From: Clostridiales bacterium | GTDB taxonomy: Bacteria; Bacillota; Clostridia; Christensenellales; UBA3700 | Direction: 5' to 3' | DNA: 64,000 nt | Assembly: GCA_014799575.1 (NCBI GenBank) | Contig: JAAVHS010000015.1 | Location: 143,570 to 207,569, forward strand | Part shown: piece by piece, positions 33,801 through 54,466 of the stretch | How positions within the stretch are numbered: position 1 is the first letter of the stretch | Layout of the letters: the number at the start of each line of letters is the position of its first letter | Translations under genes and position numbers: made by a program | Notes under the pieces: generated by a model | The model's input: only the letters and a program-made list of their open reading frames with translations | Database searches by the model: none | Told to the model about the DNA's origin: nothing

Positions 33801-35790
33801 AAAATGCTCCACCATTAGCCGTAGAATCAATGCTCAAATATTGTGCTGATAATATTTCAAACATTTTTGTCTCAATATAAATCCCGTCTACTGAATTCGG
33901 CATTGAGAAATCTACTAAACCATGATCGAGTTCATCGTAGAATCTATATTGAATTAATTGACTACTACCTAGATTGATTAACAATGGATTAACATAAAAA
34001 TCAAATGGTATTTGAGGATAAACGACATTTATACTTAATTTGTTATCCATCATAATCCCATCAATAGAAACCTCTATTTCATATACACCTGTTTCTGCCA
34101 TAAAATCTACACATATGACATTGTCAGTATAAAAACTCAATGGCGCTTCATCATCTACTATATTCGATTCAATAAACTTGAATTGTGCATTCTTAGGCGA
34201 TACTTCTATATGCTCCGTTAAATCTATAATATCGCCAGGATTTACTGTCAAAATATTTCCAGTTGAAAATGCGACGCTAATGGGTTTAATTACTTCTACT
34301 GTAAATCTTAGCGCATTGCTTTCCACTCCGTCAGCAACCGCAATGACCGAGAATTCATATCCTTCTGGGCAACCGCGCTTTAATGTTATTTCATCATTTT
34401 CTATTATGACAAATTCTTCATCATATTTATAACTTACATTTTGATATGTAGCATTGCTAGGCAATATGGTTGAAGCCAACTTGATTGTTTCACCATATGT
34501 AATTATATTTTTCTCTGACTGAATAGTAACTTTTTGCACGTCGTTTTTCACAATTTTGAATGCATGCGTGAATGTCTTGCCGTCCGCATTTACCGCAATT
34601 GTAACATCTGCGCCAATTTTAGCCGTGTTATCTATACTAATTGTACCACTTTCCGCTTCCATATCAGCATATTGCCCACCTGTCACTACATCATAATTTA
34701 ATTTAATAGGAGTAGCATTTGAAGGTGAAAACGTTGCTTTAAATTTATATTCTTCACCTTGGCGGACTTCATTAGGACTTCCTGTAAAATCTACATCTTT
34801 AACTTCTACGTATTCTTTCATCAATGAAGGATATTTATATCCACTCATAAAAAGCCAATTATTATCGAAGTTAGTCCAATTATATTGATTACGATTACGC
34901 ATCAAAGATAATGTCGATTCTTTGACGTTTACGGCTTGTCCAGAATTAAATGCTATTGCCTCCAAACCTGTATCGGATGAAAATAAAACATTCTCTACCG
35001 TACCATTCCAATTATCGCCACAAATTGCAGCCTTTGCAATGCCGCTAATCTCTCCAATATTATAGCATTGATTTATTGATGATTCATAATTTGCTCCATC
35101 TCCATTGCCCGCAATTCCGGCAACATATGTACCACCTGTAACTTTACCTGAATTATAACATTGAGATATTGTTTTTAAGTTACTACCACATATTCCACCA
35201 GTATACATACCAGAATCGGAATTTTCTACAATGCCTTTATTTGAACATTGCTCTACAGTACCACTATTGCTTCCTACAATTCCGCCTACGCCTTCGCCGT
35301 TACCAACTACTTTTGCATTATTTGTGCAACCGTCAATTACTCCCAAATTTGCTCCAGCAATAGCACCAACTTGTGATTTTCCCGATATTTGTCCGTCATC
35401 AATAATTACATTTTTAATTGTTCCTCTATTAATGCCAAACAATCCTAATCCAGAACTAGTTGAATTAAGACTTACATTTTTTATTTTATATCTTTGTCCA
35501 TCGTAATTTCCCCTGAAATATTTCCCAATGCCAGTGAAATTAGATAATTCGGAAAGATCAATATCTTGCGTTTGTATATAATGCCCCGTTAAATTATTCC
35601 TAATTTTAGCAAAATCCTCAGCTGATTCAATTAGTATAGCCGAATCAGTATTACTAGCCAACAAAGTATTGTCAGTATCAGTATTTAATCCTAACCAATT
35701 GCTACCATTTATAGATAATAGACACACCATGCCTATAACAATAACTAAAGCAATAGTTACACACATCATTTTTCTTCTTAACGTAGACAT
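30829..35790 (-). CDS. Giant surface protein: N-terminal anchor, GLUG-type beta-helix repeats, Ig-like (Big_2-like) domains, C-terminal glycine-rich GGNGG region
   Basis: 1653 aa. GGIVGSNSGTVEQCSNKG..GGICGSN..AGIAGNG (GLUG pattern). Several ~90-aa Ig-like segments. The last ~260 aa are dominated by GGxGGxGG repeats. Confidence 0.75.
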   Translation of the reverse strand: MSTLRRKMMCVTIALVIVIGMVCLLSINGSNWLGLNTDTDNTLLASNTDSAILIESAEDFAKIRNNLTGHYIQTQDIDLSELSNFTGIGKYFRGNYDGQRYKIKNVSLNSTSSGLGLFGINRGTIKNVIIDDGQISGKSQVGAIAGANLGVIDGCTNNAKVVGNGEGVGGIVGSNSGTVEQCSNKGIVENSDSGMYTGGICGSNLKTISQCYNSGKVTGGTYVAGIAGNGDGANYESSINQCYNIGEISGIAKAAICGDNWNGTVENVLFSSDTGLEAIAFNSGQAVNVKESTLSLMRNRNQYNWTNFDNNWLFMSGYKYPSLMKEYVEVKDVDFTGSPNEVRQGEEYKFKATFSPSNATPIKLNYDVVTGGQYADMEAESGTISIDNTAKIGADVTIAVNADGKTFTHAFKIVKNDVQKVTIQSEKNIITYGETIKLASTILPSNATYQNVSYKYDEEFVIIENDEITLKRGCPEGYEFSVIAVADGVESNALRFTVEVIKPISVAFSTGNILTVNPGDIIDLTEHIEVSPKNAQFKFIESNIVDDEAPLSFYTDNVICVDFMAETGVYEIEVSIDGIMMDNKLSINVVYPQIPFDFYVNPLLINLGSSQLIQYRFYDELDHGLVDFSMPNSVDGIYIETKMFEILSAQYLSIDSTANGGAFSIKATTEDGLERIKTYDIAIPVNNIEIEVDKVSKNFCKYVETLSNGDLVFNITPNSKLGSDRSDLIINLLPINTTETKIKYIISEHEEIVSYDQLNNGKLLLKLFPLNKTTKDNGESKQFKVVFYAGKCERTVIFKVVPVEVKKAVIREQNNYPTNAMYVGNTYNFVLEPQAFATDLNYAWEVDSLAKNFLTYEVDDNSIMIRIIANPQKEEIVTLSGSINGVSASINLHIKVAVESIDIRYQAENRKFEAGRTVQCILSNISPAAVNDKNIKYRIISGYEAIDDSSLKEDEDGYYISSNPDGSALYRLREGGDYVGTEIVILAVAHNGITSEYSYFTVEDTSIDSFEMTKTNEEAVPTSMKQSSKISFMVEYSPKYYYGDVQIIFHAGRTDWFNFDGKNECTQIGNELIYTTKASEGKVYLYDFGFTTSAVIDELFYIKVRIDNQEQVYEIKVNHGLVISASISETSSSTLVNMSNVQYLEKADVTLYYQGQEIGKKSYSYNNNANNKSIDLTEMLCFVKPEKIHVEYFIYIHYNTDKNQEITAKDVRFVLSEDITGFNRTIDGNQYNYWNKYKNNTNQAYLSLSKFDNCDIEIPSNMLEVTITGEGLSNKKNTKIIVSSRTSDLCINLDNVAISGYISINSYSKTLLNFKKEGEISSTSTNNAAIYSQGDIEIRNGDLVRILGKDSDSSGGKGGIAIKCNNLRINNVRFFGAGGGKGGNGSNGSDGNPGEKGDDGVNYKGSYLSHAHGKTGGDGTDGTNGTNGGDGGAAIECNTLVIDASSFSAGGGAGGKGGNGGNGGQGGTGGNGAATTNRGGFGSSDKNSDDAGNGGTGGKGGNGGNGGKGGDGGKAVVANQPVSIVNRSSVAFRHGDAGAGGVGGNGGNGGTGGKGGPDTQTSGQEGFGGNGGNGGNAGTSGESGLAVEKVPFTRENSMCSVYDSDGAKYVASYTTGIKGYGGDGGAVGDSGAHDSSKRWGGSPGENGEGRDKY
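30890..31680 (-). repeat. GC-rich coding repeat region encoding GGNGG/GGKGG tracts
   Basis: Includes an exact 34-nt duplicate ccgccattgccaccattgccgcctttgccgcctg at 31271-31304 and 31400-31433. Confidence 0.8.
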
Positions 35791-37458: not shown

Positions 37459-40400
37459 TTAGATAACGCCTCCCAAAACTCTCTTTGCTATTTTCAATGT
37501 GTCCTGAACAAAATCCACATCCGCCTCATTGTATGGTTGCACTATCTCGTTTATAATAATCGCCGTTCCACACGATATTGCTTGTTTGTTAGTGGTTACT
37601 ATATCAATGTACAGCCTATCATTATAATTGCAACCTAATTCGGCATAGTTTAACTCTATTAATTTTTCAATATTATTCCCTGCTTGTATTATAAATTCAT
37701 TGCTTTCGTATACTATTTCTCCATTTTTATTATCTCTTCTTATAACAACTTTTGCATTTTCGGCTCTGTATCCTGCATTATTTATATTTAAAGCTATAGA
37801 TTCTTTGCCCGCTTTTAAATGTTGAACAATATTGAGTTCTATGTTTGCATAGTCTACTTGTATTTGCGTATAATCATTTGCACCATTGCCATCATTAATT
37901 AAATCTAGTTTCAAATCAATAACACTAGGGATAGATTGACATGTCCAAATTATTTTAATTAACCTTTCTTCGTTAGGTAACAATGCTTGATTCAAAACAA
38001 CATTTTGCTCCTCGTTATTGATTAGTGCTTTAAACTCATTAATATTTGTGCATCCCTTATTCTTTATGAAACAATATATTTCATTGTCTCCTAACTTAAC
38101 AAAATCTAACATAAACGCCTCATCTAAACCAAGATCAGCCTTTAATTCACAAGATTCTGATTTAATTTCTCCTATTGATATATTTTGATTCGATGAGTAC
38201 TCATAAGTTACACCTACTATTTCTATTTTTGAATCAACAACGCAGCCATTTATAGCAATATAATTATTGTTATTATCCAAATAAATTCCATTAGTCCAAG
38301 AATCTTTCTCTCTGTCAAATTGCGCTAAATATAATTCCCTACTATCGTCAGCTGCTATCGTATAGATTATTCTGCTATCAACATCTTCTATGACCGAATA
38401 ACTATCCATAAGATTCGAATCCTGAATAATAGTTTTTTCAGTATTGTTCTTAATGTCAAGCATTTTTATGCTTCTGTCTTGATAATAGAACATCACAGTT
38501 GAATTATTTACGTTACCAAATTGAGGTTCACATTGCATAGTCTGAGATACTTTCTCAACTGCTTTTAAACTGTTTTTCTTTCCATAATATATGGACAACT
38601 TATCTGTAGACTCTAAATCGTTGGCTTCATTAATTGAGACCGCTATATTTATTTCTCCTTCCATATATGTAGCATCAAACGAACTAATTGGCGAATCAGT
38701 TTCATAGATTACATAAGGCTGCATCCAATTACTGTTTATTCTCTCAGCGCAATATAACTTATTCCTACCAGTTGCACCAAATGGATTGTTGTCCGTATTG
38801 TTTAACCAAACTATTGCCATATTTTGCGAAGTCGAATTCTTTACAAATTTAGGCAACGTACTCATCGTATCCAGAGAATAGGCTTTTATTTCCTCAAATG
38901 AACCGGTTGTAGTATTAAATTGAGCAACTTTAATCTGAGATGAAGCAAAGACATCACCAATTGTAGATTCTCCATCAAACACATTCGTACTCTTGTGCCA
39001 TACTACCATTGCAACATTGTCTATTACTTTCAACTCTGGATAATAGTCTGCCTTACCGTCATCAAGAACACTTCCCATTTTATCTCCATAAGAATAAACT
39101 AATTTGGTTTTATTATAGTTATCCCGCATATCATCTTTTTCTATCCATACACTTAACTTTTCATTATTGATATATACGCTTTGAGGGCGGGCATCCATAT
39201 AAGTTCCATTATTATTGGAATTATCTGACAAGTATTTCATTTTTGCGCGTTCATTAACGACATTTTTCTCATCGACTATTTTCCAATCGATTTCATAACC
39301 CAATATGCCAACTAGAACACCGAATGATAAAAATATATCTAACCCATCTTCACCATTTAATATATTAATTAAGAAGTCAATTTCGCCCTTGCCGTATGCA
39401 CCTATACTGCATATCTGCTTGATACCTACTCCTCCGCCAATACTTCCTCTAAATTTGACGATTAATTGAAGAACATGCTGAAGTTCTCTCAATTGTTCAT
39501 AGTCATAGTCAAATTCAATAGCACCACCTAAACCATATGTCATATAGATTGGTATTGGCACTGGTCCTGCGGTAACAATATGGTACTTAGTGAAATCGAC
39601 TCCACCTTCTAGTTCTAAATTGAATCCACCAGACAATATTCCATCTTTTCCTTTAACTTCGCCAGTAAAAACCTTATCAGAAATTTCAATATAACCTACT
39701 ACATTCAAAGCTAAAGACATTTTCTTTTCTAGTTTTGGTAATGCTGCAATCATATCTTTATAATAAAATTTGTCAAAAGCTCCCCACAAAGATTTAGCCA
39801 CTGACTGTTTCTTTGCCTTAGGATTAATGTTATCTCTTCTCATTTTATAACTATTTACAAAAGAAGTGAATTTCTTTTTGTTTTCGTTTTTTCTCGCTGC
39901 AGCCTCTTCCTTGGTTTCTTTTGGTTTTTTATCTTTTTTAAAATCCAACTTAACTCCTACAACCACCTGAAAACTACCTCTAATGTTGTCGTGAATAACT
40001 TCTAGTCCCGAGCCGCTTATATTAACTTTTCCAGCATTTATAGAAAGCTTTTCTTTCAACATTTTAAATATATCTATCTCACATGATCCCAAAAAATCAG
40101 TCTCCCCTAATTGTAGTTTTAAGGAATCGGAAAGACTAATTTTTATATATTCTTCAGCCGGCAAATCTGTTAATTCTACGACCGCAACCTTGATTTTCGT
40201 TTTTCTACTTCTTAATCCGCCTTTTTCGGTTACCAAATAAATATTATCATTTGCTTGAGAAATAGTTGATCTAACAGCTGGAGCCACTCCACGAGCATCC
40301 AAATCTTTTACAGGTAAATCTAAGAAATTGCCATCAGATGATGTGGCAATCAGCGTATCGCCATTATATAAATAATATGTATCGGCGCCATTTGCTTCTA

Positions 40401-41064
40401 CAGAAATATCAATAGTATCTTCATATGCATCATCTTTATAAAACGAGTAGGACTGCTCCGCAACGTTTGCCTTTTCGCCTAGATAATCTAGAGTAACATT
40501 ATAAATATCCATGTCGTCTGTTGGATTTTTTAAATAAATAGTCTTCTCTGTCTTACCTTCTTCATTTGCATAATAAACATCATAGAATTCTACATAAGGA
40601 TTATATCCTTCTTTTTCTATTCGCAATTCGACTATTTCCTCTGTCAATTTCACAAAAATCTGTCCAGACACATCTGTAAATCGAGGAACTCCATCAATGA
40701 CTATAACAGCTCCAGAAATTGCTTTATTTGTTTTACGATCCTTTACAGTAAATGTATGCCAAATTGGAACACTCTCGTATTCTGCCATTAAATTTATGCT
40801 TTCCGATGCTTTTCTTTGCTGATCTGCTATATATTCATCCTCTGATGTATATAATTTAATCCCTGCTCGTTCCAACACTTCTTCAGGTAAAACTTCTTGC
40901 ACTTCGCTAGATGTTGCGACAGCGGTAATTTCTTTGCTCTCAGTCTTCTCATTTTGTTTAAGCAGACTAAATGAAGTAGGTATTAATGTTACGAGCATAA
41001 TAACTAATAATACTGTTGCTATTGATTTTTTCATGGTTAACATATGTGTCTCCTGCATCTCCAT
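37459..41064 (-). CDS. Large secreted/surface protein, function unknown
   Basis: 1201 aa. Signal/anchor MKKSIATVLLVIMLVTLIP, a CarboxypepD_reg-like Ig segment, and C-terminal CARDB-like segments. These assignments are tentative. Confidence 0.6.
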   Translation of the reverse strand: MEMQETHMLTMKKSIATVLLVIMLVTLIPTSFSLLKQNEKTESKEITAVATSSEVQEVLPEEVLERAGIKLYTSEDEYIADQQRKASESINLMAEYESVPIWHTFTVKDRKTNKAISGAVIVIDGVPRFTDVSGQIFVKLTEEIVELRIEKEGYNPYVEFYDVYYANEEGKTEKTIYLKNPTDDMDIYNVTLDYLGEKANVAEQSYSFYKDDAYEDTIDISVEANGADTYYLYNGDTLIATSSDGNFLDLPVKDLDARGVAPAVRSTISQANDNIYLVTEKGGLRSRKTKIKVAVVELTDLPAEEYIKISLSDSLKLQLGETDFLGSCEIDIFKMLKEKLSINAGKVNISGSGLEVIHDNIRGSFQVVVGVKLDFKKDKKPKETKEEAAARKNENKKKFTSFVNSYKMRRDNINPKAKKQSVAKSLWGAFDKFYYKDMIAALPKLEKKMSLALNVVGYIEISDKVFTGEVKGKDGILSGGFNLELEGGVDFTKYHIVTAGPVPIPIYMTYGLGGAIEFDYDYEQLRELQHVLQLIVKFRGSIGGGVGIKQICSIGAYGKGEIDFLINILNGEDGLDIFLSFGVLVGILGYEIDWKIVDEKNVVNERAKMKYLSDNSNNNGTYMDARPQSVYINNEKLSVWIEKDDMRDNYNKTKLVYSYGDKMGSVLDDGKADYYPELKVIDNVAMVVWHKSTNVFDGESTIGDVFASSQIKVAQFNTTTGSFEEIKAYSLDTMSTLPKFVKNSTSQNMAIVWLNNTDNNPFGATGRNKLYCAERINSNWMQPYVIYETDSPISSFDATYMEGEINIAVSINEANDLESTDKLSIYYGKKNSLKAVEKVSQTMQCEPQFGNVNNSTVMFYYQDRSIKMLDIKNNTEKTIIQDSNLMDSYSVIEDVDSRIIYTIAADDSRELYLAQFDREKDSWTNGIYLDNNNNYIAINGCVVDSKIEIVGVTYEYSSNQNISIGEIKSESCELKADLGLDEAFMLDFVKLGDNEIYCFIKNKGCTNINEFKALINNEEQNVVLNQALLPNEERLIKIIWTCQSIPSVIDLKLDLINDGNGANDYTQIQVDYANIELNIVQHLKAGKESIALNINNAGYRAENAKVVIRRDNKNGEIVYESNEFIIQAGNNIEKLIELNYAELGCNYNDRLYIDIVTTNKQAISCGTAIIINEIVQPYNEADVDFVQDTLKIAKRVLGGVI

Positions 41065-42078: not shown

Positions 42079-42627
42079 TTATTTTTTACGACTTTTGCTT
42101 AAAAAACAAATAAGAGTAACGATAGCTCCTACTAATACCGCAACTAATAATACAAATAAACCTATATTCACTGATTGTGGCATTCTCCAATGTGCGGATT
42201 GTACTGTATCTATTCCTTTATTGGTAGTGAATAATGTAATAGATAATATAAATATTGACAAACCTGCAAAAATAGTAACAATGATTAGCATAATGATACT
42301 TAACTTTTTATGCTTTTTAGGTCGTTTCTCATCTTGCTGAATCTGCTCTTCTACTATTTCATCTTTACTTTTATTATCATTTTCTACACGTTGCGCTTCA
42401 AGCATTGTTGCGCAAGTTTCATTATCTTGCTCTACAAACTCATTTGCGCTTACATTAAATGTTTCACAAATCACTTTTATTCTAGCAAAATTAGGCTTAC
42501 TAGTTCCTAACTCCCAAGATGAAACTGTTTGTTTTGCAACTCCCACTCTATAAGCAAATTCTTCTTGAGATAAACCGTTTTTCTTTCTTGTTTCTCTTAT
42601 CTTGTCGCCTATGTAATTATCTTCCAT
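42079..42627 (-). CDS. XRE-family HTH regulator with C-terminal membrane anchor
   Basis: 182 aa. IRETRKKNGLSQEEFAYRVGVAKQTVSSWELG. Two C-terminal TM helices. Confidence 0.8.
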   Translation of the reverse strand: MEDNYIGDKIRETRKKNGLSQEEFAYRVGVAKQTVSSWELGTSKPNFARIKVICETFNVSANEFVEQDNETCATMLEAQRVENDNKSKDEIVEEQIQQDEKRPKKHKKLSIIMLIIVTIFAGLSIFILSITLFTTNKGIDTVQSAHWRMPQSVNIGLFVLLVAVLVGAIVTLICFLSKSRKK

Positions 42628-42822
42628 TATTTCTCTCGCAAATTATTTTATTATATCAAGTTCATTTGATTTTGTCTTTAATCTTATGTTGTTATTATAC
42701 TATAACTATAATGAATTTTCAAGAACTATCGTTAATTTATTTTGATAGTATAATCTTATCGACATTATCTTCCATTTTTCGACATCCAACATATATAATT
42801 ATAAATATAAAACAATAATTTT

Positions 42823-43006
42823 ACAAGCAACTTTACTCGACATCTTGTCAACTTTAGTTTACATTATGCCGATTTACACTTAACATCTTGTCAACTTTTG
42901 TTTACATTATGTAAACTTACACATAATGATTTGTCAACTTTACTTAACATTGTGTAAACTCACACGCAAAATCATGTTAACTTTACTTAACATTGCGTGA
43001 TTTGTT
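42823..43006. repeat. Array of 4-5 direct repeats, period 42-46 bp (iteron or operator-like)
   Basis: Units start near 42823 (partial), 42841, 42884, 42930 and 42972. Core (c/t)ttgtcaactttNNtt(t/a)acatt(a/g)tg. Unit 2 contains the palindrome tttacat-t-atgtaaa. Confidence 0.75.
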
Positions 43007-43078
43007 ATTAAAAAAATAAAATACACTTTATTGTTTGGTAGAATTAAATATTTTTCTTATTTGAACAAATTTTGAATA

Positions 43079-43591
43079 TTACGGTTTAATTATAATAATT
43101 TCTAAACCTTGATTACGCGCATAATCTATTGTTGATTTAGTTCCCCCATATAGACCATTAAATAACGCTATCATTAGCGATGAATTGTTTACCATAAATC
43201 TATTTCTTTCCAACATACATTCAGGTCCAATATATGTATCAAATTTGCAACGGATTCCGTCTAATTGTTTTAGTAGTTCTCTATATCGTTCTCTATCTTT
43301 ATATTGCCATATTTTATCTTGAGTTTTGCAAGGCAATGCGCCTATGATCTTTATGCCGCTATACTTTTTCTTTAATGCAAGAATTGTTTCCGCGCATATC
43401 ATATCAAAACCAAGCGCCATTCCGCAAAGAAAGGTCCTGTACCCTCTCTCTATTACTTTTTCCAATTCCGTTCGCAATGTTTCTTTCATTACTTTGCAAC
43501 GCTCATCTTCTTCATTAAACCGCCAAGGCAACTTCTGACTCCTATGCCCTGTAAAACATACCGCTCGCTCTTTCTCTATAATTTCACACAT
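43079..43591 (-). CDS. SLOG-fold DUF1273 (YpsA/YoqJ-like) protein
   Basis: 170 aa. CFTGHR, GYRTFLCGMALGFDMICAE, ERNRFMVNNSSLMIALFNG..GGT. Confidence 0.65.
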   Translation of the reverse strand: MCEIIEKERAVCFTGHRSQKLPWRFNEEDERCKVMKETLRTELEKVIERGYRTFLCGMALGFDMICAETILALKKKYSGIKIIGALPCKTQDKIWQYKDRERYRELLKQLDGIRCKFDTYIGPECMLERNRFMVNNSSLMIALFNGLYGGTKSTIDYARNQGLEIIIIKP

Positions 43592-43756
43592 AAAAAATGC
43601 CGCCCTTTGCAGAACGGCACTGTAGATATACCGTCCACCGCAGTCGCCAAACCAAAAGCAGAATTCCCCAACGAGAAAATCAGCGCGATGTAGGTATAGT
43701 TCTACCTATAGCTCGCGTCGGGTACTTTTATATTCTACTTTTAGTTTGGCATATTG

Positions 43757-43785
43757 ATTATATCAAATTACTATTTATGTGTCAA
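43757..43785 (-). promoter_or_regulatory. Consensus SigA promoter driving a ~165-nt leader of the SLOG gene
   Basis: Minus strand TTGACA, 17 nt, TATAAT (plus-strand tgtcaa 43780-43785, attata 43757-43762). Confidence 0.7.
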
Positions 43786-43787
43786 TC

Positions 43788-43815
43788 AAAAGAGCCGTTC
43801 CTTACGGAATGGCCC
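43788..43815 (-). terminator. Rho-independent terminator after ORF 43828-44181
   Basis: Minus-strand GGGCCAUUCC-GUAA-GGAACGGCUC followed by UUUUGAUU. Confidence 0.7.
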
Positions 43816-43827
43816 TTCTGACACTCA

Positions 43828-44181
43828 TTACTTATTCACATCTAATACCCCACTTGAAATCAAGTGATTCTTTACTTTTATAGGAAATACCTTTGCCAAG
43901 TCCATTAGTTCCTTTGTGGATATTTTGTTTTTCACAATGAATTCTATTATCCTTTCTTTAACTAAATCATTCAACTTTGTCTGTGTTCCCATATCCACAA
44001 ATAGTTGTAGTATTTTATAAGCATTTACATTTGCTTTTGAGATTTGGCAACGCGCTTTTCTTAACACAAATTTTCTACCGCCAATCTCAATTTTCCTACA
44101 CTTCATTTCGCCGTTGCTTGTCACAATTTCAACAACGTCAGGCATTTGCGACGTAACTGAAAATTCATTCTGCAATTTCAC
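43828..44181 (-). CDS. C-terminal part of an AbiEi-type (DUF6088-like) protein, tentative
   Basis: 117 aa with a GTG start overlapping the upstream stop (GTGA). FSVTSQMPDVVEIVTSNG..RKIEIGGRKFVLRK resembles the middle of AbiEi-family antitoxins. Confidence 0.4.
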   Translation of the reverse strand: MKLQNEFSVTSQMPDVVEIVTSNGEMKCRKIEIGGRKFVLRKARCQISKANVNAYKILQLFVDMGTQTKLNDLVKERIIEFIVKNKISTKELMDLAKVFPIKVKNHLISSGVLDVNK

Positions 44182-44459
44182 ACCGCTATAAATTCCATAG
44201 ACATTAGAACATACTTTTTGTTCATTACGTCATCAGACGTTATTGTAGGCAATCCTAAATCAGCCTTTTGTGGGATATAATATACCCCACTACTGAATTG
44301 CGCAAGTTCACCAACGGACTTTGACTTATTTATAAGACGAAACACATAAGCGCGCGTATATTCTGCAAACAACTCCAATATCTCGTTCGTAAATATGGGT
44401 TCATTGCTACTGAACTTCTTTTTCAATCTATTGGCAAACGAAACTTGACTTTTATCCAT
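44178..44459 (-). CDS. AbiEi-type N-terminal winged-helix-like protein, tentative
   Basis: 93 aa. FTNEILELFAEYTRAYVFRLINKSKSVGELAQFSSGVYYIP resembles the AbiEi N-terminal domain. Confidence 0.4.
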   Translation of the reverse strand: MDKSQVSFANRLKKKFSSNEPIFTNEILELFAEYTRAYVFRLINKSKSVGELAQFSSGVYYIPQKADLGLPTITSDDVMNKKYVLMSMEFIAV

Positions 44460-44467
44460 ATTTACTC

Positions 44468-47400
44468 TTATCTTCTATTCATAGCCTTTTGCTCTTTCAA
44501 GTAATCGGCATATCTTTCGATTTGATCTTCCCTAAGGTCAATCATATCTTTTGCTGTTCCAAACGCTTGTGCATCCGCTACAATGAGTTCCGTTTCCTTG
44601 ACTTTTATCTTAGAACCGTCGCTAGTCGCATTACGGCGAATATCTTTCATATACTCATCTTCCATTTTATAAAGCGCAACAACCGTGTCTTTCTTGATCG
44701 TCAACTTCAACAATGGATTTGCCGTATTCGGTCCAAAGACTACAAAGTACGTTGACTTCTTCTCTTTGCATTTATCCTTTGAGAGAGCGTAATCTCTAAG
44801 TCCGTCAAAGTACTTCTTCTGTTCTTTACTAAGAGTTGCGTAAGCCTCATCAAGCGTAAGACGTGGAGCAACTTCCTTTTTAGGCTTTGGCGCAGCTGCC
44901 ACCTTAACTTCCTTGATTACCTGTTTTTCAACTACCTTTTCTACAGGCACTTCGACAACCTTTTCTACGACCTTCTCGACTTCGATAGGTACTTCCTTGA
45001 CGACTTCCTTCTCGACTATCTTCTCTACCGGTACTTCAACAACTTTCTCCACTACCTTTTCGACAGGAACTTCAACAACCTTCTCTACGACTTGCGGTTG
45101 ATTGTTTTGGTTGGCAGACAGCTCTAATATCTTTGCCATAAGCAATTCTTGGTTTTTCAACATCTGCTTTATTGTCTCGTCATTTTGTCCGCTTTGCGTT
45201 ACTACTTTAAGTATAGTTTCATCGCTTATGTTTGAAGAAATCGGTTGTAACTTATTAACAAGTTTTTCCAACGTTTCTTCGCTTATGTTGGCGCTTGCGA
45301 CTTCTCTTTCAGCGGGCATCTCAACAAGTTGTTGCATCAACTTCTCAACGCGCCTTTCCGTCTGCTCATTAAGTTTTCTCAATCGTTCTTCATTTTGTGC
45401 GTTCTGCTCCATCAGTTTCTGTACAAACACATCGTTGTTTGCAGTTTCCGAAGGTTTCTCGGCGAGTTGCTTCATAAGTTTCTCATTTTGGTCAATTAGC
45501 TTTTGCACCATCTCATCGTTTGTCGATGCTTGTTGCGGTAACATTTGTTGCATACCTGGGAGCATTGCCGTAACGGTCTCGGATATAAGTCCTCTCATAT
45601 CATCTGCTGTTAAGCCTTGTTGATAAGCAAAACCGCCTTGAGCTCCCGCTCCGCCTGCATTTCCGCCCATCATACCCATGAGCATCATACGCATATTTTC
45701 ATCGCGTTTTTTCTCGTCAAAATCAGCCTTATTGCGATTGTATTCGTCGAGATGATCTTCGTACTCTTCTTCCGCTTTATTGCGTCTTGACTTGGCAATC
45801 AACATCATTACAAACGATACCACTGCCATTACAATCAACACACACGCTATTGCAGTCCATATAGACATTGCCACGCCCAAGAATGCTCCTGCGTACATAC
45901 TCTCCAACTTACTTGCTTTCTTGTTGAACTTCTTTCTCTCTCCGTCATACTTTGCAGTCTTTGATAAGAATACTATAATAAGTATTATGCTTATAAAACT
46001 TGCTATCAACTGCCACAATGGTATTTCTTTGAGTTTCTCTAATATCTCTTCAAGTGAGCCGCCAAATAAGCCTCCACCCTCATTATTGTTGGGGGGATTT
46101 TCGCCGCTTTGGTCTCCGCTGTTTGGATCTTTGTTATCGTCCTCATTAGGAGCATACGTAACTTCTTCCACAACGGAATTACTTGCGTCTATCATTGCAT
46201 AGTTGCTATTGTTAAGTTTAGCGACTACTTTTGCTACTTCCACTCCGTCTGCAATTTCTGCAAGCGTAAGTTCATAGCCATCTTCGTCATAATACGTATA
46301 CGTAAACTCTATATCGCTGTTTCCTCTAACACTCAACTTAGGCAAACCGCTTTCTTCATCTGTCGTCCAATTCAACCTATTTTGCGTTATAGTTGCCTTT
46401 TCAATCTTGACGGTAACAGTGTAACTATCCGTAGTTCCGTCTTCGTCATCCCAACAGAATATTTCTTCATCTTCAAGGCTAATTCTTATGGTGTATTCGC
46501 CCGCATCGGTCAAGTTGCCATCTAGTATTTCAAACTTGACACCCGTAGGCATTTCATCTCCGCTTCTCAAGAATTCTTCGATAGTATGCGGATTTCCGTC
46601 ATAGGTAATTTTCTTGTTGGTATCGAATACAGGTTTTACAATAGATGCGCTCGATCCCGGTCGAAGTACCGTCTTTGGCTCGCCGTATATCTTGATATCG
46701 TCCTCGTAGCCATCTTTAGCGAACAACTCTTTGAAGTATGGAACGCCTGTTTCCATATCTCTAATACCATTTGCAAGAATATTGCCATCGCTGTCTTTAT
46801 ATCTGTAATCTACGTAGGATTTTACCCAATCGTCCAATACTGCCGTAGCGTTGGTATTATTACCTTGCCACTCCAAGTTTATCTCATAAGCCTTTACTCT
46901 TACCAAAGTGGAAGCCGCCGGCCAAACTCCGTCTTGCCAATCTATATTGTCATAATCTAACAAATCAAATACTACTGTGTACTCGCCCGCCTTGATTGCC
47001 TTGTAAGCGTCTCCGTCAAGTCCGTCAAAAGCGCTACCGTCTTTCGTGATGGTAATCGTCATATAATTTTCCCATCCCTCTTCGGTTATGCCAAACATTT
47101 GGGCGAAATCGTGTACTTCTCCGTCAAATACCGTCCAACTCTTGTCAAATACAGGAGTCGGCAATATCTTGACTGAAATGCTCCAATTCAATCTTGTCTG
47201 CAAAGAGCTTGGCATAACTACCGTCTCATAGTTGCTACCCAAGTCAGCGAGTGCGTATTGTATTGAATAATTACCCACTTTGCTCTGTGTACGTTCACCG
47301 CTATTATAAGAGATATAATCTTTCAAGATTTCGGGTACGTTGATAAGTCCGACGGTATATGATGCTTCTCTACCGCTTGCTCTAGTATACGGCAATGCTC

Positions 47401-49978
47401 CCGTATATTCCGTTTCTTCTCCGTCTCCAATTACGTATCCCCATACGATAGCCGACGCATCTACCTTGGCTTTTGCTATGCTCCAAGAAAGCGTAGTCGG
47501 GAAGTTGGGCGCATTGTAATTCTTGGTATCGTAAGAGAACGTAATACGCGCGGTATAGTCGTTGCCCGCATTGGTTTCTTCGTGACCTATTACGCTTATG
47601 CTCAAGCCGTTTATACTGTCCTTACCGACAAGCGTCAACGTATGCGCCGTATTATCATACGTCATCGGATCAATTTCATTGTTGCTTGCATCCAACCACT
47701 TGTTTTGGTCGAAATCATATGTAGCCGCAACGTTGCCGTGTGTATACTGCCATTTGAGTCCGCTCACGTCAAAGTCGGCTTTGATTATCTCGAAATTAAA
47801 TTCCAAACATCCGCTGTCAATATAGTTATCCTCTGCTTTATCGCTATTAAGTACGACTTCTATTCTGTACTTACCCACTTCCGTAGGTTCGCCAATAATA
47901 GGACTAGTAGCTCCGTCCTTGTAGTAATGAAGCGTGATATCTTGCGCTCCTACTCCGCCATCGGCTTGAAGTATCTCTATACTAGGCGAGTATGCGCTAC
48001 CTGTGTATGACAACTGTTTGTCTTGGATATTCTCGCCATTCCATTGCAATTCCAACTTGACAACGAATTTATCCTTACCAATGACGAACGTGTATTCTGC
48101 CGTATCGCCTGTCGATAACTTATAATTCCCGCTATACGCTGTCTTGAGCGTAGCCACTACCCTATACGTGGTCTCTTCTGTTACTTCATCAGGACTCGGC
48201 AACGTGGTAACTTGTTCGCTGCCTTTATAATAAGTATAGTCTACCATGTTCGCTTGTGGAAGATTGTTAAGCGTAGGCCACGTGTATTGAGTCACGTTTC
48301 CGTTGTTGTCATTCTTCCAACTTACGCTGATTGTCGCTTGGATTATCTTCCAACTTACAGAAAATTCGAAGTCATCGCCTATATAAGAAGTCTTATCACT
48401 CGCAATAGGTACGATATAATTATTCACGTAATCTGACGTTATACTAAACGTAACGGTCGTGGTATAGTCGCCCACGGGCGTTTTACTTCTGTCGCCTGTA
48501 TACGTCGCTGTCAAACCTGCGGGCAATACGCCTTGCAATTCCATGCTTTGCGGAGATCCGTTGTATTCTAATTGTTTTACGCTAGGCCAACTCAATCCCG
48601 TCAAATTGTACTTCGCCTTATCTATGCGATAAGACAAAGTATATTGCTTGGTGTAAGTCTCGTAAGTGTTGTCTAAATTCGTTAAATGAACTGTGACTGA
48701 ATATAGCGACGTACTAGCGTTTGTTGCGCTAATATTTCCGCTATATCCGCCCGTAGTACCACTCTTGGTCGTGTCTATCTTGACGCCGTGCGAAGCAAGT
48801 ACGCTGTCGTCTATGCTAAACGTATACGGACTGCCTGTGTATACAACTGAATAATTCGTAGGATAGCCTATTGAAATACTATTGCACAACCAATCAATAT
48901 CTGTGTCTTGTAGCGTAATACCTACTCCGCTGACGTGGAATACCAACGTCTTTGGCGTAGACAACGTGTAATTGCCGTTGGCATTACTACTGCTTGCGTT
49001 AGCCTTTTCGACGTATATCGTATAGTCGCCTTTGGCAATGCCCGTCGGCATTGTTATAGTAGTTGTCTTACCGCTTACTACTTTAATGGTATTGATTTCA
49101 TCGTACTTTGTGCCTGTACCTATACTGTTATTTATATAATATATCTTTAATTCTATTGTATCATTAGTATATGAATCTTCCGTTATCGTTACGGTAGGTT
49201 GAACTCCGTAATTCCAAGTATTGTTGTTTGCATCGCAACTTATTGTGATGCCCAACGCTTTTGGATTTATTGTCACAGGCAATGAAAAACTATCCGTTCC
49301 ACCGCTCGACCACACCATTGAGCTTTTCTCGACTAGCGAAAACGTGACGTAATAAGTACCCGCGTCTTTGACTTTCAATTTACCGTCTTTCAACTCTAAT
49401 ACGCCATCTTTTAACTCTAATATATTATTGTCTTTTTTGATATTATCGATTTTAACGTCATCGCTCAATCCGTTGATGGTAAATTCTTGCAGTTCGCCGT
49501 TATACGACAAAGTATTCGACCCTATGGTCGGCTTTGTCACGGGTTTTGCGGTAATCGAAAGGTCAGGCGTTGCTTTGCAAGTACCTTTCAATTCATAGTT
49601 ATTGTTTGGGTTCATCGTCGCTGTGACGGTATACGTACCTACCGCAGTGGGATATTGGGTATATGTTTCGCCCGTTAAATTGTTTTTGTAAGTAATAGTA
49701 AACGTCGGCGCTCGATCTCCTGTATCGCTGTCGTATATCTTATTGGCGTCAGGGTCGTTGGCAACGACTATAGGCGTGACGGTATAACCTCCGCCGCTCG
49801 ACGTAGGTTTTATCTCACATTCTATAGGTTTTTTCTTGATTGTAAATGTAAATTTTCGAGTTGTAGCGTCTTCACCTTTGCTTACATCGGGGTCGCCTTT
49901 GAACGTAAATTCCGGGTCTTCTTGTAATTTCTGGTCAGAAATCTTCGCCGTCACTGTATAAGTGCCGGCGTCTTTCAT
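44468..49978 (-). CDS. MBG-repeat surface protein, distal part of the DGR target. The frame stays open upstream to 50209.
   Basis: 1836 aa as listed. Repeated AGTY(T/Y)VT...YNG MBG-type units, a TM helix (LWQLIASFISIILIIVFL plus a second helix), and a cytoplasmic tail with EKVVEVPV repeats. No signal peptide and no clear RBS at the listed ATG. Confidence 0.7.
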   Translation of the reverse strand: MKDAGTYTVTAKISDQKLQEDPEFTFKGDPDVSKGEDATTRKFTFTIKKKPIECEIKPTSSGGGYTVTPIVVANDPDANKIYDSDTGDRAPTFTITYKNNLTGETYTQYPTAVGTYTVTATMNPNNNYELKGTCKATPDLSITAKPVTKPTIGSNTLSYNGELQEFTINGLSDDVKIDNIKKDNNILELKDGVLELKDGKLKVKDAGTYYVTFSLVEKSSMVWSSGGTDSFSLPVTINPKALGITISCDANNNTWNYGVQPTVTITEDSYTNDTIELKIYYINNSIGTGTKYDEINTIKVVSGKTTTITMPTGIAKGDYTIYVEKANASSSNANGNYTLSTPKTLVFHVSGVGITLQDTDIDWLCNSISIGYPTNYSVVYTGSPYTFSIDDSVLASHGVKIDTTKSGTTGGYSGNISATNASTSLYSVTVHLTNLDNTYETYTKQYTLSYRIDKAKYNLTGLSWPSVKQLEYNGSPQSMELQGVLPAGLTATYTGDRSKTPVGDYTTTVTFSITSDYVNNYIVPIASDKTSYIGDDFEFSVSWKIIQATISVSWKNDNNGNVTQYTWPTLNNLPQANMVDYTYYKGSEQVTTLPSPDEVTEETTYRVVATLKTAYSGNYKLSTGDTAEYTFVIGKDKFVVKLELQWNGENIQDKQLSYTGSAYSPSIEILQADGGVGAQDITLHYYKDGATSPIIGEPTEVGKYRIEVVLNSDKAEDNYIDSGCLEFNFEIIKADFDVSGLKWQYTHGNVAATYDFDQNKWLDASNNEIDPMTYDNTAHTLTLVGKDSINGLSISVIGHEETNAGNDYTARITFSYDTKNYNAPNFPTTLSWSIAKAKVDASAIVWGYVIGDGEETEYTGALPYTRASGREASYTVGLINVPEILKDYISYNSGERTQSKVGNYSIQYALADLGSNYETVVMPSSLQTRLNWSISVKILPTPVFDKSWTVFDGEVHDFAQMFGITEEGWENYMTITITKDGSAFDGLDGDAYKAIKAGEYTVVFDLLDYDNIDWQDGVWPAASTLVRVKAYEINLEWQGNNTNATAVLDDWVKSYVDYRYKDSDGNILANGIRDMETGVPYFKELFAKDGYEDDIKIYGEPKTVLRPGSSASIVKPVFDTNKKITYDGNPHTIEEFLRSGDEMPTGVKFEILDGNLTDAGEYTIRISLEDEEIFCWDDEDGTTDSYTVTVKIEKATITQNRLNWTTDEESGLPKLSVRGNSDIEFTYTYYDEDGYELTLAEIADGVEVAKVVAKLNNSNYAMIDASNSVVEEVTYAPNEDDNKDPNSGDQSGENPPNNNEGGGLFGGSLEEILEKLKEIPLWQLIASFISIILIIVFLSKTAKYDGERKKFNKKASKLESMYAGAFLGVAMSIWTAIACVLIVMAVVSFVMMLIAKSRRNKAEEEYEDHLDEYNRNKADFDEKKRDENMRMMLMGMMGGNAGGAGAQGGFAYQQGLTADDMRGLISETVTAMLPGMQQMLPQQASTNDEMVQKLIDQNEKLMKQLAEKPSETANNDVFVQKLMEQNAQNEERLRKLNEQTERRVEKLMQQLVEMPAEREVASANISEETLEKLVNKLQPISSNISDETILKVVTQSGQNDETIKQMLKNQELLMAKILELSANQNNQPQVVEKVVEVPVEKVVEKVVEVPVEKIVEKEVVKEVPIEVEKVVEKVVEVPVEKVVEKQVIKEVKVAAAPKPKKEVAPRLTLDEAYATLSKEQKKYFDGLRDYALSKDKCKEKKSTYFVVFGPNTANPLLKLTIKKDTVVALYKMEDEYMKDIRRNATSDGSKIKVKETELIVADAQAFGTAKDMIDLREDQIERYADYLKEQKAMNRR
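44905..45092 (-). repeat. In-frame tandem repeat encoding (V/I)VEKVVEVPVEK units
   Basis: Protein VVEKVVEVPVEKVVEKVVEVPVEKIVEKEVVKEVPIEVEKVVEKVVEVPVEKVVEKQV. The corresponding DNA units recur with small changes. Confidence 0.7.
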
Positions 49979-51550: not shown

Positions 51551-51579
51551 TTGACATACAATATATTATATGATATAAT
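51551..51579 (+). promoter_or_regulatory. Consensus SigA promoter for the only plus-strand gene
   Basis: TTGACA (51551-51556), 17 nt, TATAAT (51574-51579). AAGGAAA RBS precedes the ATG at 51607. Confidence 0.7.
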
Positions 51580-51606: not shown

Positions 51607-52071
51607 ATGTTTGTAAAAATCACATCTGTTGCTACTCTTCCCGATTATATCCTTCTCGTAGGATTTGTGTCAGGCGAATATAAGCAATTCGACTTAAAAC
51701 CGCTTATAGAAAAATATGCGCCGTTCAAATCTTTGGTAGAAGTGGAAGGCCTTTATGAACAAGTGAAAATCGACGTAGGCGGTTATGGTCTTGTCTGGAA
51801 CGACGATCTCGATATCGCCGCAGATGGAATTTATGACAAAGGTATTTCTTGCGCTCCTCCGAGCGACATAGAAACTTACAGACAAAAACTTGTCGAAGAG
51901 TTTGTCAAAGCGCGTAAGAACGCAGGTCTTTCTCAAAAACAACTCGAAATTCTTTCGGGGATTCCCCAACCATGTATCGCTCGAACGGAAAAAGGGTTAA
52001 CAGATCCGCAACTTACAACTTTACTAAAACTACTTTCCCCATTAGGTTTGACTCTTTCAATTACAAAATAA
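51607..52071 (+). CDS. DUF2442 domain / XRE-type HTH fusion protein
   Basis: 154 aa. N-terminal pattern V..LPDYILLVGFVSGEYKQFDL..DVGGYGLVWNDDLDIAADGIY fits DUF2442. C-terminal AGLSQKQLEILSGIPQPCIARTEKG is an HTH. Confidence 0.65.
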   Translation: MFVKITSVATLPDYILLVGFVSGEYKQFDLKPLIEKYAPFKSLVEVEGLYEQVKIDVGGYGLVWNDDLDIAADGIYDKGISCAPPSDIETYRQKLVEEFVKARKNAGLSQKQLEILSGIPQPCIARTEKGLTDPQLTTLLKLLSPLGLTLSITK

Positions 52072-52822: not shown

Positions 52823-54466
52823 CTACTGTCTGGCTTTTGATTTCATCCAACCGCTCAACATCTTCTTGACTTCGCAAACTTGCTTACCTATAAGCATGGC
52901 TTGTTTGTTTGTAATGGCCTGCTTAACCTTTGCGGTCTCAGCATAAAAGTCCAATAGACACAAGTTGACCATTGCTTGCTTTTGGTACTCGCTACGCTTT
53001 TCATCTCTTTCAAAATTTGCGTAGTACAAACTCTCTATGACTGACGTCGATGCGTCCATAAGCCTTGATACAATACTCCATCTCAATGTCTTTGGCGACT
53101 TTTCCGTGATAACAAAAATATACTCGCTCAATTTCTTTGCGCCTGTAAACACTTGCATTTCTCTGTCTTTGGGTTGATTGAAGTCAGTTATCTTAAAAGG
53201 CTTTTTCTCCCCTTCTTGCGTTTGGTTTTCAATTGTGTTTTCTTTGGTTTCTCCCAAAAGTTCATTCTTTATTTCTTGGTCTATGTCGTTCATCATCTCT
53301 TTCAAATACTCCTTTTGTCCTTCATACGTAGATAATTTTTTCTCTTCGGCAAATGCTTTTTCTTTCTCTTCGATCGGCTCTAATTTCCGCTCGATTTCTT
53401 TTGCAAACTTTATACTCTTTGCGTGTTTCAAATGACCGTGAAATGCTGCGCACGTTTGCCTTATTCGTTCAATATTTATCAGTCCCTCATAGTATCCTTT
53501 CTTTATTAGTTTCACTCGCCATCGGAATCTTCGCTTGGTTTGCTTCTTTATCGTCTTGACTATTTCCCCTTCAGGTGTAACAACAAATCTGTACCCAAGA
53601 TAAGTCACTCCGTTCTTTATCGGAAATATCTGTGTCTTGGAATTTAATTTCAAGCCTAGCCGCTTTACCAAATCTTCTATCCGTTCTTTGACGTACTTTA
53701 TGTATTCAAGGTTTTCGTGCATAAGTACGAAGTCATCCATATACCTTGAATATACCTTTATTCTCAACTGCTCTTTTATTAATCTATCCACGGGGTCAAG
53801 ATAAAACATTCCAAAAATTTGACTTGTCTGATTTCCAATCGGTATACCCCTTCCCGTCTCTTCGCCTTTGCCTAATGGCTCTATACCGTACTTAGTCAGA
53901 TAATCGGGACTTGTGCTGTATCCGTCAATTACGCCTTCTATCATCTTTCGTATGCGCTCGTCCACTATGCGAGTACAAACTACCGACTTTAACTTGTCAT
54001 GCGGTATGCTTGCAAAAAATTTGAGTACGTCGCACTTGAGAAAATACCCATTGACTCCATTCTTATCTATGTGTCTACGCAACATTTTTTCAAATCTATC
54101 CAATGCAAAATGACTGCCTTTGCCCTTTTGGCAAACACAATTATCATAAATTACCCTATTTGCAAAATATGGCATAAGCATATTATCGCATAAGACGTGC
54201 TGTATCACTCTGTCGCAATACCGCATATTTTGAATCTCTCGACGCTTGGGCTCAAATACTAAAAAGGTGTTATAGCCACCAAACTTAAATGTACCGTTTA
54301 TTAATTTCTTATGTAATTCGTAAATATTTCCTAATGCGGAAATTTCAAATTTTACTATGGGTTTCTTACTTCTACGAGAAGCCCTGCTCTTCAAGTGAGC
54401 TGCATAAAGATTTTCTATACTGAACAACTCTTCGTAAGTGTTCGTTATCAATTTATTTGTTTTCAA
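52823..54466 (-). CDS. DGR reverse transcriptase with C-terminal Avd-like domain
   Basis: 547 aa, TTG start with GGAG 5 nt upstream. RT motifs FEPKRREI, CQKGKGSHFA, GIPIGNQTSQ (the DGR-specific (I/L)GxxxSQ) and SRYMDDFVLM. C-terminal ~115 aa: SPKTLRWSIVSRL..ESLYYAN..EVKKMLSGWMKS, resembling the Avd four-helix bundle. Confidence 0.85.
   Translation of the reverse strand: MKTNKLITNTYEELFSIENLYAAHLKSRASRRSKKPIVKFEISALGNIYELHKKLINGTFKFGGYNTFLVFEPKRREIQNMRYCDRVIQHVLCDNMLMPYFANRVIYDNCVCQKGKGSHFALDRFEKMLRRHIDKNGVNGYFLKCDVLKFFASIPHDKLKSVVCTRIVDERIRKMIEGVIDGYSTSPDYLTKYGIEPLGKGEETGRGIPIGNQTSQIFGMFYLDPVDRLIKEQLRIKVYSRYMDDFVLMHENLEYIKYVKERIEDLVKRLGLKLNSKTQIFPIKNGVTYLGYRFVVTPEGEIVKTIKKQTKRRFRWRVKLIKKGYYEGLINIERIRQTCAAFHGHLKHAKSIKFAKEIERKLEPIEEKEKAFAEEKKLSTYEGQKEYLKEMMNDIDQEIKNELLGETKENTIENQTQEGEKKPFKITDFNQPKDREMQVFTGAKKLSEYIFVITEKSPKTLRWSIVSRLMDASTSVIESLYYANFERDEKRSEYQKQAMVNLCLLDFYAETAKVKQAITNKQAMLIGKQVCEVKKMLSGWMKSKARQ

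Follow-up and report, generated by a model that had tools for sequence, protein, structure and literature searches.

The leader that precedes a SLOG/YpsA-family (DUF1273) gene in a 64,000-nt stretch of DNA from a Clostridiales bacterium (contig JAAVHS010000015.1 of assembly GCA_014799575.1; the whole stretch is called the window throughout) represents, as judged from sequence comparison, a new, well-supported and uncatalogued family of structured RNA that appears to use a known regulatory principle in a distinctive way. The RNA is about 160 nt long, is enriched in GC and spans positions 43592-43750 of the minus strand, which carries every feature of the SLOG leader region in the window. A covariance model of the family matches positions 43591-43756 with a score of 113.5 bits (E ~5e-21), and this is the sole copy in the window. 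The minimum free energy (MFE) of the leader is -63.1 kcal/mol, compared to -42.8 +/- 4.1 kcal/mol for shuffled sequences (z = -4.97), and none of 200 shuffles was as good. An earlier inspection of the letters (the sequence-only reading) had described the leader as richer in GC than its surroundings and had found no riboswitch class to which it could be assigned, and both descriptions were borne out. The GC content of 43596-43715 is 50%, compared to 36.7% window-wide, at the 98th percentile of 120-nt windows. Rfam 15 gave no match at the gathering score on the window and only noise at E<=10 on the leader region, and eight divergent copies of the RNA scanned at E<=1 again gave noise only. ARAGORN detected no tRNA or tmRNA in the window, where the T-box, tRNA and tmRNA models of Rfam were likewise unmatched, and a literature search for DUF1273, YpsA or SLOG together with riboswitches returned no relevant paper.

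Homologous leaders were collected in several ways. A genome scan with the SLOG protein gave 62 loci in species-representative genomes, mostly metagenome-assembled genomes of Christensenellales and other Clostridia. BLASTN with the leader against these 62 loci recovered the closest relatives only. When the upstream DNA was read by eye, the same architecture was seen in L002, L003, L014 and L010, the last of which has a closing helix of entirely different sequence with complementarity kept. A degenerate pattern of the 3' core gave 39 matches in metagenome contigs, of which about 17 were judged by eye to be chance and dropped; the pattern thereby contributed about 22 further true members of the family in metagenome contigs, and another was found in IMG/VR. 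A covariance model was then built on 16 copies with a hand-derived structure, and the search was extended to contigs fetched for SLOG homologues. It identified 36 significant copies, 33 of them distinct, with scores of 48-173 bits in contigs of Christensenellales/Clostridia. BLASTN of the leader against the INPHARED phages and the PLSDB plasmids gave no match, and in viral contigs two pattern scans gave a single copy (L103) while scans with the SLOG and helix-turn-helix (HTH) proteins gave nothing.

Covariation in this collection carries the case for a conserved structure. RNAalifold on a MAFFT alignment missed two of the helices, P2 and P3, owing to misalignment, and the hand-derived structure with covariance-model realignment was therefore used. 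Across the 33 distinct sequences 89.9% of pair cells hold standard pairs, compared to 40-50% when the partners were slid; 32 of 53 pairs are changed on both sides, and none of 500 shuffles reached the observed values. The same picture was obtained on 24 distinct sequences. Changes on both sides were found in 10 of 14 modelled pairs of helix P1 (90.8% of cells paired), in 6/6 pairs of P2 (88.1%), in 6/9 of P3 (85.0%) and in 6/7 of a pseudoknot, PK1, so that the RNA contains a structured domain of aptamer type with covariation, as a riboswitch does. The terminator that follows is paired in 98.5% of cells, with 3 of 12 pairs changed on both sides. Two subtypes could be distinguished: type A, which includes the window copy, and type B (L004, L010, L064, L110, L113, L115 and L120), which differs in its P3 and in carrying an additional C-rich/G-rich hairpin.

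In the window copy, P1 is a long-range helix of 19 bp (43750-43732 / 43664-43646) that encloses the interior of the leader. Its 5' strand, GCCAAACUAAAAGUAGAAU (43732-43750), pairs in the MFE fold with AUUCUGCUUUUGGUUUGGC (43646-43664), a 3' strand identified by family covariation as well. Two G-U pairs of P1 are possible on the minus strand only, and this specificity for the transcribed strand argues for an RNA rather than a DNA structure. P2 was located by covariance-model alignment; its 5' strand is approximate (43712-43722) and irregular in the window copy, and its 3' strand, CUCGUUGGGG (43666-43675), is backed by covariation. The P3 hairpin (43695-43710) pairs UAUAG with CUAUA (43710-43706 / 43699-43695) and carries a conserved motif, GGUAGA (43706-43701), in or beside its loop. 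At this place the sequence-only reading had seen a composite hairpin of 5 + 6 bp (43684-43717), which does exist as part of the single-sequence MFE fold, although the comparative data favour the register of P3. An alternative pairing was also found, in which the 3' strand of P3 with the following CC (UAUACC, 43698-43693) pairs with GGUAUA (43632-43627); this pairing is 98-99% pairable.

Two long-range contacts appear to connect this domain to the 3' part of the RNA. PK1 pairs CAUCGC (43685-43690), in the bulge between P3 and P2, with GCGGUG (43636-43641), which lies 4 nt past the end of P1. It has 5-7 bp in 17/17 distinct type A copies, with compensatory variants such as AUCGUUG/CAACGAU, AUUGCUG/CAGCGAU and UUACUG/CAGUAA, and the stability of cognate pairs exceeds that of non-cognate pairs (p = 0.017). 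The second is a loop-loop contact between GUAGA of the P3 motif and UCUAC (43626-43622) in the loop of the anti-terminator described below; 99-100% of its cells are pairable, and one compensatory case (GUAGU/ACUAU) was seen. P1, P2 and P3 are thus predicted to stack as a rod, with the 3' tail tied back to it by PK1 and by the GGUAGA/UCUAC contact.

The RNA ends in an intrinsic terminator (43592-43621, -15.3 kcal/mol) with a stem of 11 bp, G-U pairs included (43621-43611 / 43606-43596), a GCAA loop (43610-43607) and a run of six U (43597-43592), and the ATG of the SLOG gene (43591) follows the U-tract directly, with no spacer. The sequence-only reading had reported a weak stem of 5 bp with a 12-nt loop and a U6 running into the ATG. 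The hairpin and the U6 abutting the ATG stand, but the stem had been undercounted since G-U pairs were ignored, and the loop is a tetraloop. The same reading had placed the only AAGGG inside the loop of this stem; AAGGG (43603-43607) is indeed the sole sequence resembling a Shine-Dalgarno (SD) sequence, 11 nt before the ATG, but it lies at the boundary between the loop and the 3' arm. Purine-rich 3' arms of the terminator (GGGAG, GGAG, GGGGG) are present in all copies of the family.

A second hairpin, mutually exclusive with the terminator, is formed by GGACGGUAU and GUGCCGUUC (43612-43636, 9 bp with the 7-nt loop AUCUACA, -10.1 kcal/mol) and is the putative anti-terminator. Its 5' strand, GGACGGUAU, lies just 5' of the terminator and GUGCCGUUC makes up most of the 5' arm of the terminator, so that positions 43620-43612 are common to both hairpins. 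The anti-terminator is 99.7% pairable across the 33 distinct sequences and in both subtypes. On folding of transcript prefixes it appeared first, and was displaced only after the 3' arm of the terminator had been made. The shared strand varies by C/U transitions only, which are tolerated by both partners (G-C/G-U on one side; C-G, U-A or U-G on the other), and this is the pattern expected under two pairing constraints.

In type B copies the 3' strand of P3 with the next bases, UACCnGUUCC, resembles the 5' arm of the terminator. This mimic forms a 9-bp duplex with GGAACGGUA, at -11.9 kcal/mol compared to -12.8 kcal/mol for the anti-terminator, and in L110 a joint change has turned the mimic as well as the terminator arm into CCGUUUCC. 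The homologous duplex of type A falls into two halves, UAUAC:GUAUA (98% pairable) and PK1, on either side of an internal loop with GAACG. P3, the long-range duplex, the anti-terminator and the terminator would therefore be four successive overlapping helices, which is the logic of a classical attenuator.

The leader is preceded by its own promoter. As the sequence-only reading had noted, a perfect TTGACA-17-TATAAT lies some 165 nt upstream of the SLOG gene; this sigma-70-type promoter (43785-43757, minus strand) matches the consensus at 12/12 positions and has a TG extended -10, and the end of its -10 box is 166 nt from the ATG, with transcription predicted to start at about 43750. Sites of this form with at most one mismatch number 8 in the window, compared to 1.5 expected, and only two are perfect. 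The other perfect site (51551-51579, plus strand, 12/12, also with TG before its -10) lies just upstream of a 154-aa open reading frame (ORF) at 51607-52071. A terminator-like hairpin with a U-run (43786-43822, minus strand) adjoins the -35 box directly, where it forms the end of the split AbiEi-like gene before it. The folding energy of the 45 nt in front of the -35 box is -23.2 kcal/mol (RNAfold), and the hairpin 43822-43786 probably insulates the RNA unit from upstream transcription. Among 30 copies of the family examined, 25 have a promoter of at least 10/12 matches with a TG extended -10 at the same position, and in about 13 a hairpin resembling a terminator lies against the -35 box. The order of promoter, untranslated leader and intrinsic terminator before an ORF, which is that of attenuators in general, is thus conserved in the family, as is an alternative helix sharing a strand with the terminator. 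A promoter-pattern scan showed no convincing antisense promoter inside the leader, and no counter-transcript promoter was identified at the locus by the promoter scan. Attenuation by a leader peptide was considered and set aside, because the small ORFs inside the leader are only out-of-frame ones and are broken up by the covarying helices.

The gene behind the leader (43079-43591, minus strand) encodes a protein of 170 aa which belongs to the YpsA/SLOG family, with a match to PF06908 at 99.2 bits (gathering cut-off 27.7, E 3.3e-28). Two forms of this protein occur among loci L001-L062: a short form, in which the CFTGHR motif begins after some 10 residues and whose gene often has the RNA in front, and a long form with an extra N-terminal extension of about 25 residues, probably helical, without the RNA. 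Downstream of the SLOG gene a spacer of 450 nt contains several promoter-like sites matching at 10-11/12 positions (42650-42826, minus strand), and the HTH-transmembrane gene that follows (42079-42627, minus strand) probably has its own promoters. Upstream of the leader, two ORFs of 93 and 117 aa (43828-44459, minus strand) match the AbiEi antitoxin model PDLC02236 of PADLOC over profile positions 3-79 and 91-205, indicating a split or frameshifted AbiEi gene; no AbiEii toxin gene lies behind it.

Across the family, we scored the junction downstream of the RNA for 34 copies. A start codon lies 0-6 nt past the U-tract in 16 distinct copies, 15 belonging to SLOG genes and one (L014) to a gene for an AraC-like regulator, and this spacing is kept across SLOG proteins that are only 70-86% identical. 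In 12 copies an HTH gene of XRE/CI type converges on the RNA, its stop codon touching or overlapping the U-tract, and in most of these SLOG lies co-oriented just beyond. The remaining junctions comprise two copies followed by a second RNA with its own promoter, three in which the RNA stands alone and the next gene has its own promoter, and one in which 211 nt, including what remains of the HTH cassette, separate the RNA from the SLOG gene downstream. In the 27 loci first analysed, SLOG was co-oriented with the RNA and downstream of it in all 20 that have SLOG within 2.5 kb. The flanking genes vary widely, and include UmuC-like polymerases, sigma factors, resolvase, primase-polymerase, SNF2 helicase, Ku/LigD, Fic, methylase, an EF-G/TetM-like gene and S15/PNPase; the RNA followed by SLOG is therefore the conserved unit.

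Single loci showed further arrangements. In L083 (3749-4226) the end of a tRNA-Ser(GGA) gene overlaps the first of two tandem RNA copies by about 10 nt, and this first copy has a rearranged 5' end, possibly an integration junction. In L116 (1-1663) the RNA-SLOG pair lies behind an EF-G/Tet(M)-like gene. In L118 (956-2746) genes for Sigma70_r4, HTH_16 and HTH_17 come after SLOG, and we take this order to resemble the orf7-orf8-xis region of Tn916.

We somewhat favour the reading in which the RNA is a self-contained transcription unit that acts in cis, as a terminator/anti-terminator attenuator which would also control access to the SD sequence. The promoter would start the RNA about 6 nt before the closing helix P1. 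With P3 closed, the anti-terminator would dock on the P3 loop; RNA polymerase would then read through, the SD would be free, and SLOG and the genes behind it would be expressed. Alternatively, the 3' strand of P3 would pair with GGUAUA and sequester the 5' strand of the anti-terminator, so that the terminator could form, transcription would stop at 43592 and the SD would be buried. In type B this second pairing would be a continuous 9-bp duplex. The balance between the two states would be set by an effector, which may be a small molecule, a protein or another RNA. Where an inverted XRE gene lies between the RNA and SLOG, read-through would run antisense over the repressor and then into SLOG, in a manner like that proposed for Tn916. 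A switch in cis would explain the competing helices, the mimic of the terminator arm, the start codons at the end of the U-tract and the invariable co-orientation of SLOG. Leader attenuators that abut the first gene have been described for conjugation operons (PMC13401043), and since overexpression of YpsA blocks cell division in B. subtilis (PMC6459960, PMC7376506), tight control of SLOG is plausible.

Several observations weigh against this cis-acting attenuator. Conservation is the main support for the anti-terminator, for the alternative helix and for the loop contact, each of which shows one compensatory change. P1, at 19 bp, cannot itself be a ligand-sensitive switching helix, and conservation within the RNA is highest in the 3' domain, whereas typical riboswitches conserve the aptamer and vary the expression platform. 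The spacing of 11-12 nt from AAGGG to the ATG is long for an SD sequence. Copies with a convergent HTH gene, tandem copies and copies followed by a gene with its own promoter need no leader in cis, yet their anti-terminator is equally conserved. Finally, 56 of the 62 SLOG loci in species-representative genomes lack the RNA. Conservation of the leader before homologous DUF1273 genes, the check set by the sequence-only reading, therefore gave a divided answer: the RNA abuts SLOG in 7 of 12 cases where the protein has a short N-terminus (it is nearby in one and absent in four), but only 6 of the 62 loci carry it, and most other homologues have the N-terminal extension of about 25 aa or a divergent HTH gene instead. 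The view of the region as an attenuator or riboswitch-type leader holds in so far as we find a structured RNA of regulatory type, with a conserved terminator, a mutually exclusive anti-terminator and covariation upstream. A purely cis-acting SLOG leader is too narrow a description, because the RNA is autonomous, with its own promoter and terminator, and occurs in convergent-XRE, tandem and solitary copies.

That autonomy is the starting point of the alternative which we rate next, although with a good deal of doubt: the RNA may mainly be an abundant stand-alone non-coding RNA with a constitutive terminator, which acts in trans. It could bind SLOG and neutralise it as a type III antitoxin does, with rare read-through giving SLOG, or pair with the convergent HTH mRNA, and the conserved tertiary fold would then be a surface for binding protein or RNA. 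The near-consensus promoter in 25/30 copies, often with an insulating terminator upstream, would suit such an RNA, as would the strength of its own terminator (-15 to -23 kcal/mol) and the 17 of 34 scored copies that do not lead directly into a gene (12 convergent HTH, 2 tandem and 3 alone). Type III toxin-antitoxin loci (ToxIN, CptIN, TenpIN) have a promoter, a structured non-coding RNA, an intrinsic terminator and a protein gene directly behind, and occur on mobile elements; the order of promoter, RNA, terminator and protein gene is the same here, with a terminator between the RNA and the protein gene. The protein could also be growth-inhibiting, YpsA being toxic on overexpression in B. subtilis (PMC7376506). 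In contrast to type III loci, the SLOG-leader RNA has no short tandem repeats (Tandem Repeats Finder, 43000-44300), its protein is a YpsA/SLOG member (PF06908) rather than a ToxN/AbiQ, CptN or TenpN endoribonuclease and matches no PADLOC model, and the RNA is also found without an adjacent SLOG gene, while most SLOG homologues lack such an RNA. A constitutive terminator would moreover leave unexplained both the conserved chain of mutually exclusive helices and the start codons 0-6 nt past the U-tract in 16 copies. The cis-attenuator and the trans-acting RNA are compatible and do not exclude one another. More doubtful again, in our view, is a new riboswitch class, in which a small molecule would be bound by the fold of rod plus pseudoknot. 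This ligand would plausibly derive from a nucleotide, as a metabolite or signal akin to the one that SLOG binds, and its binding would toggle the chain of helices to switch SLOG and, on mobile elements, the genes behind it. Responsiveness of the RNA to any ligand is something we purely infer.

The remaining explanations have far less in their favour. The closest described system is cATT, the zipper-type attenuator of pLS20-family conjugative plasmids (Gonzalez-Alvarez et al., NAR 2026, PMC13401043). Both are leader RNAs on Gram-positive conjugative elements, with a long imperfect stem-loop, a terminator directly before the first gene and a mutually exclusive anti-terminator that forms first, and the genes for a MobL relaxase, a T4 coupling protein and a VirB4-like ATPase in the window are co-oriented with the RNA. 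Membership of the RNA among such zipper-type, conAn-associated leaders of conjugation operons is nevertheless very unlikely and largely refuted on defining features. In cATT a 5' stem-loop, SL-2, pairs with the 5' arm of the terminator and thereby lengthens the long stem, whereas here P1 begins only about 6 nt from the predicted start, these few nucleotides lack complementarity to the terminator, and no 5' segment is present that could extend the stem. The anti-terminator strand lies 3' of the long stem, as a separate 3' hairpin that would touch the apical loop and the bulge of the rod. The first gene is SLOG (PF06908) and not ConAn1 (PF17362, PMC8191782), a model that none of the scanned neighbouring proteins matched. 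The RNA shares no sequence similarity with cATT or with PLSDB plasmids, and many copies lie outside conjugation operons, beside S15/PNPase, DNA-repair genes or a methylase. These non-conjugative contexts also weaken the idea of a master switch of a conjugation operon as the general role of the RNA. We consider it just as improbable that the region is a DNA-level element, folding as single-stranded DNA in the manner of a single-strand origin, oriT or attachment site. Its location in a conjugative element, its conserved orientation relative to the genes of the element and the copy abutting a tRNA-Ser gene would fit. The structure, however, is flanked by a conserved double-stranded promoter and a U-tract, many of its pairs are G-U (A-C mismatches on the other strand, G-T in DNA), at several positions of the terminator most sequences have G-U (29/33 in one case), and some copies are in plainly chromosomal contexts. 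An ordinary 5' untranslated region with chance hairpins in a locally GC-richer spacer has next to no probability left. AT-rich genomes do give many promoter- and hairpin-like matches, and 18 promoter-like sites were counted within 2.1 kb compared to 9.8 expected; the fold z-score of -4.97 refutes this explanation, as do 33 distinct homologues whose covariation greatly exceeds that of shuffled and slid controls.

The RNA shares features with other regulatory systems. The ZTP, preQ1 and SAM-II riboswitch classes are RNA switches coupled by pseudoknots or loop-loop contacts. Like them, the SLOG-leader RNA is found in Firmicutes leaders and has covarying helices, conserved junction and loop nucleotides, long-range tertiary pairings and a predicted competition of terminator and anti-terminator with sequestration of the SD. 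It differs in lying outside the Rfam classes, in having its 3' switching domain rather than a ligand pocket as the most conserved part, and in that about half of its copies do not lead into a gene. Antitermination of the RAT/BglG-SacY type is protein-dependent. It likewise uses a short conserved anti-terminator that overlaps the 5' arm of the terminator, is weaker than the terminator and needs stabilising, but no gene for a PRD/CAT-domain antiterminator was found among the neighbours scanned here, and the stabilising partner appears to be the 5' domain of the RNA itself. In Tn916, read-through runs antisense across orf9, an inverted HTH repressor gene, and this arrangement matches the layout of RNA, inverted XRE gene and SLOG in 12 copies. 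Termination and antitermination in Tn916 (PMC11658703) and the attenuation at prgQ/IRS1 of pCF10, as it is cited within PMC13401043, also resemble the present case in that a leader terminator gates long co-directional arrays of element genes and insulating terminators are present. The SLOG-leader RNA differs from both in gene content and in lacking a leader peptide and an identified counter-transcript promoter, and it shows no similarity to canT.

The window itself is part of a conjugative element, as indicated by genes for a MobL relaxase (27143-28360), a TraG/VirD4 coupling protein (24885-27146) and a VirB4-like ATPase (15218-17836), all on the minus strand with the RNA. Nearly all large ORFs of the window lie on this strand, that of the RNA and SLOG. 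Five of them are giant, at 1201-1935 aa (912-6719, 19994-24955, 30829-35790, 37459-41064 and 44468-49978), and probably encode surface or adhesin-like proteins of the element. A Pfam search with four of the five (all but 912-6719) gave no match, and the two ORFs of 1653 aa, although equal in length, are not paralogues. A further ORF of 547 aa (52823-54466, minus strand) has an RVT_1 domain fused to a bAvd-like C-terminus and may relate to a diversity-generating retroelement.

If the proposed model holds, these leaders would make up a family of structured RNA, so far uncatalogued, in gut Clostridia (Christensenellales) that have been little studied. Their chain of competing helices and tertiary contacts would be unusually explicit, and they would offer a handle on the control of SLOG/YpsA-family genes. 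They would also add to the leader attenuators recently recognised on Gram-positive conjugative elements. Arrays of co-directional genes on mobile elements, conjugative ones included, begin with this RNA, which may for that reason be a checkpoint for activation of the element, and identification of the effector could reveal the signal to which these elements listen. With 33 sequences and a covariance model, the family is defined well enough for direct testing.

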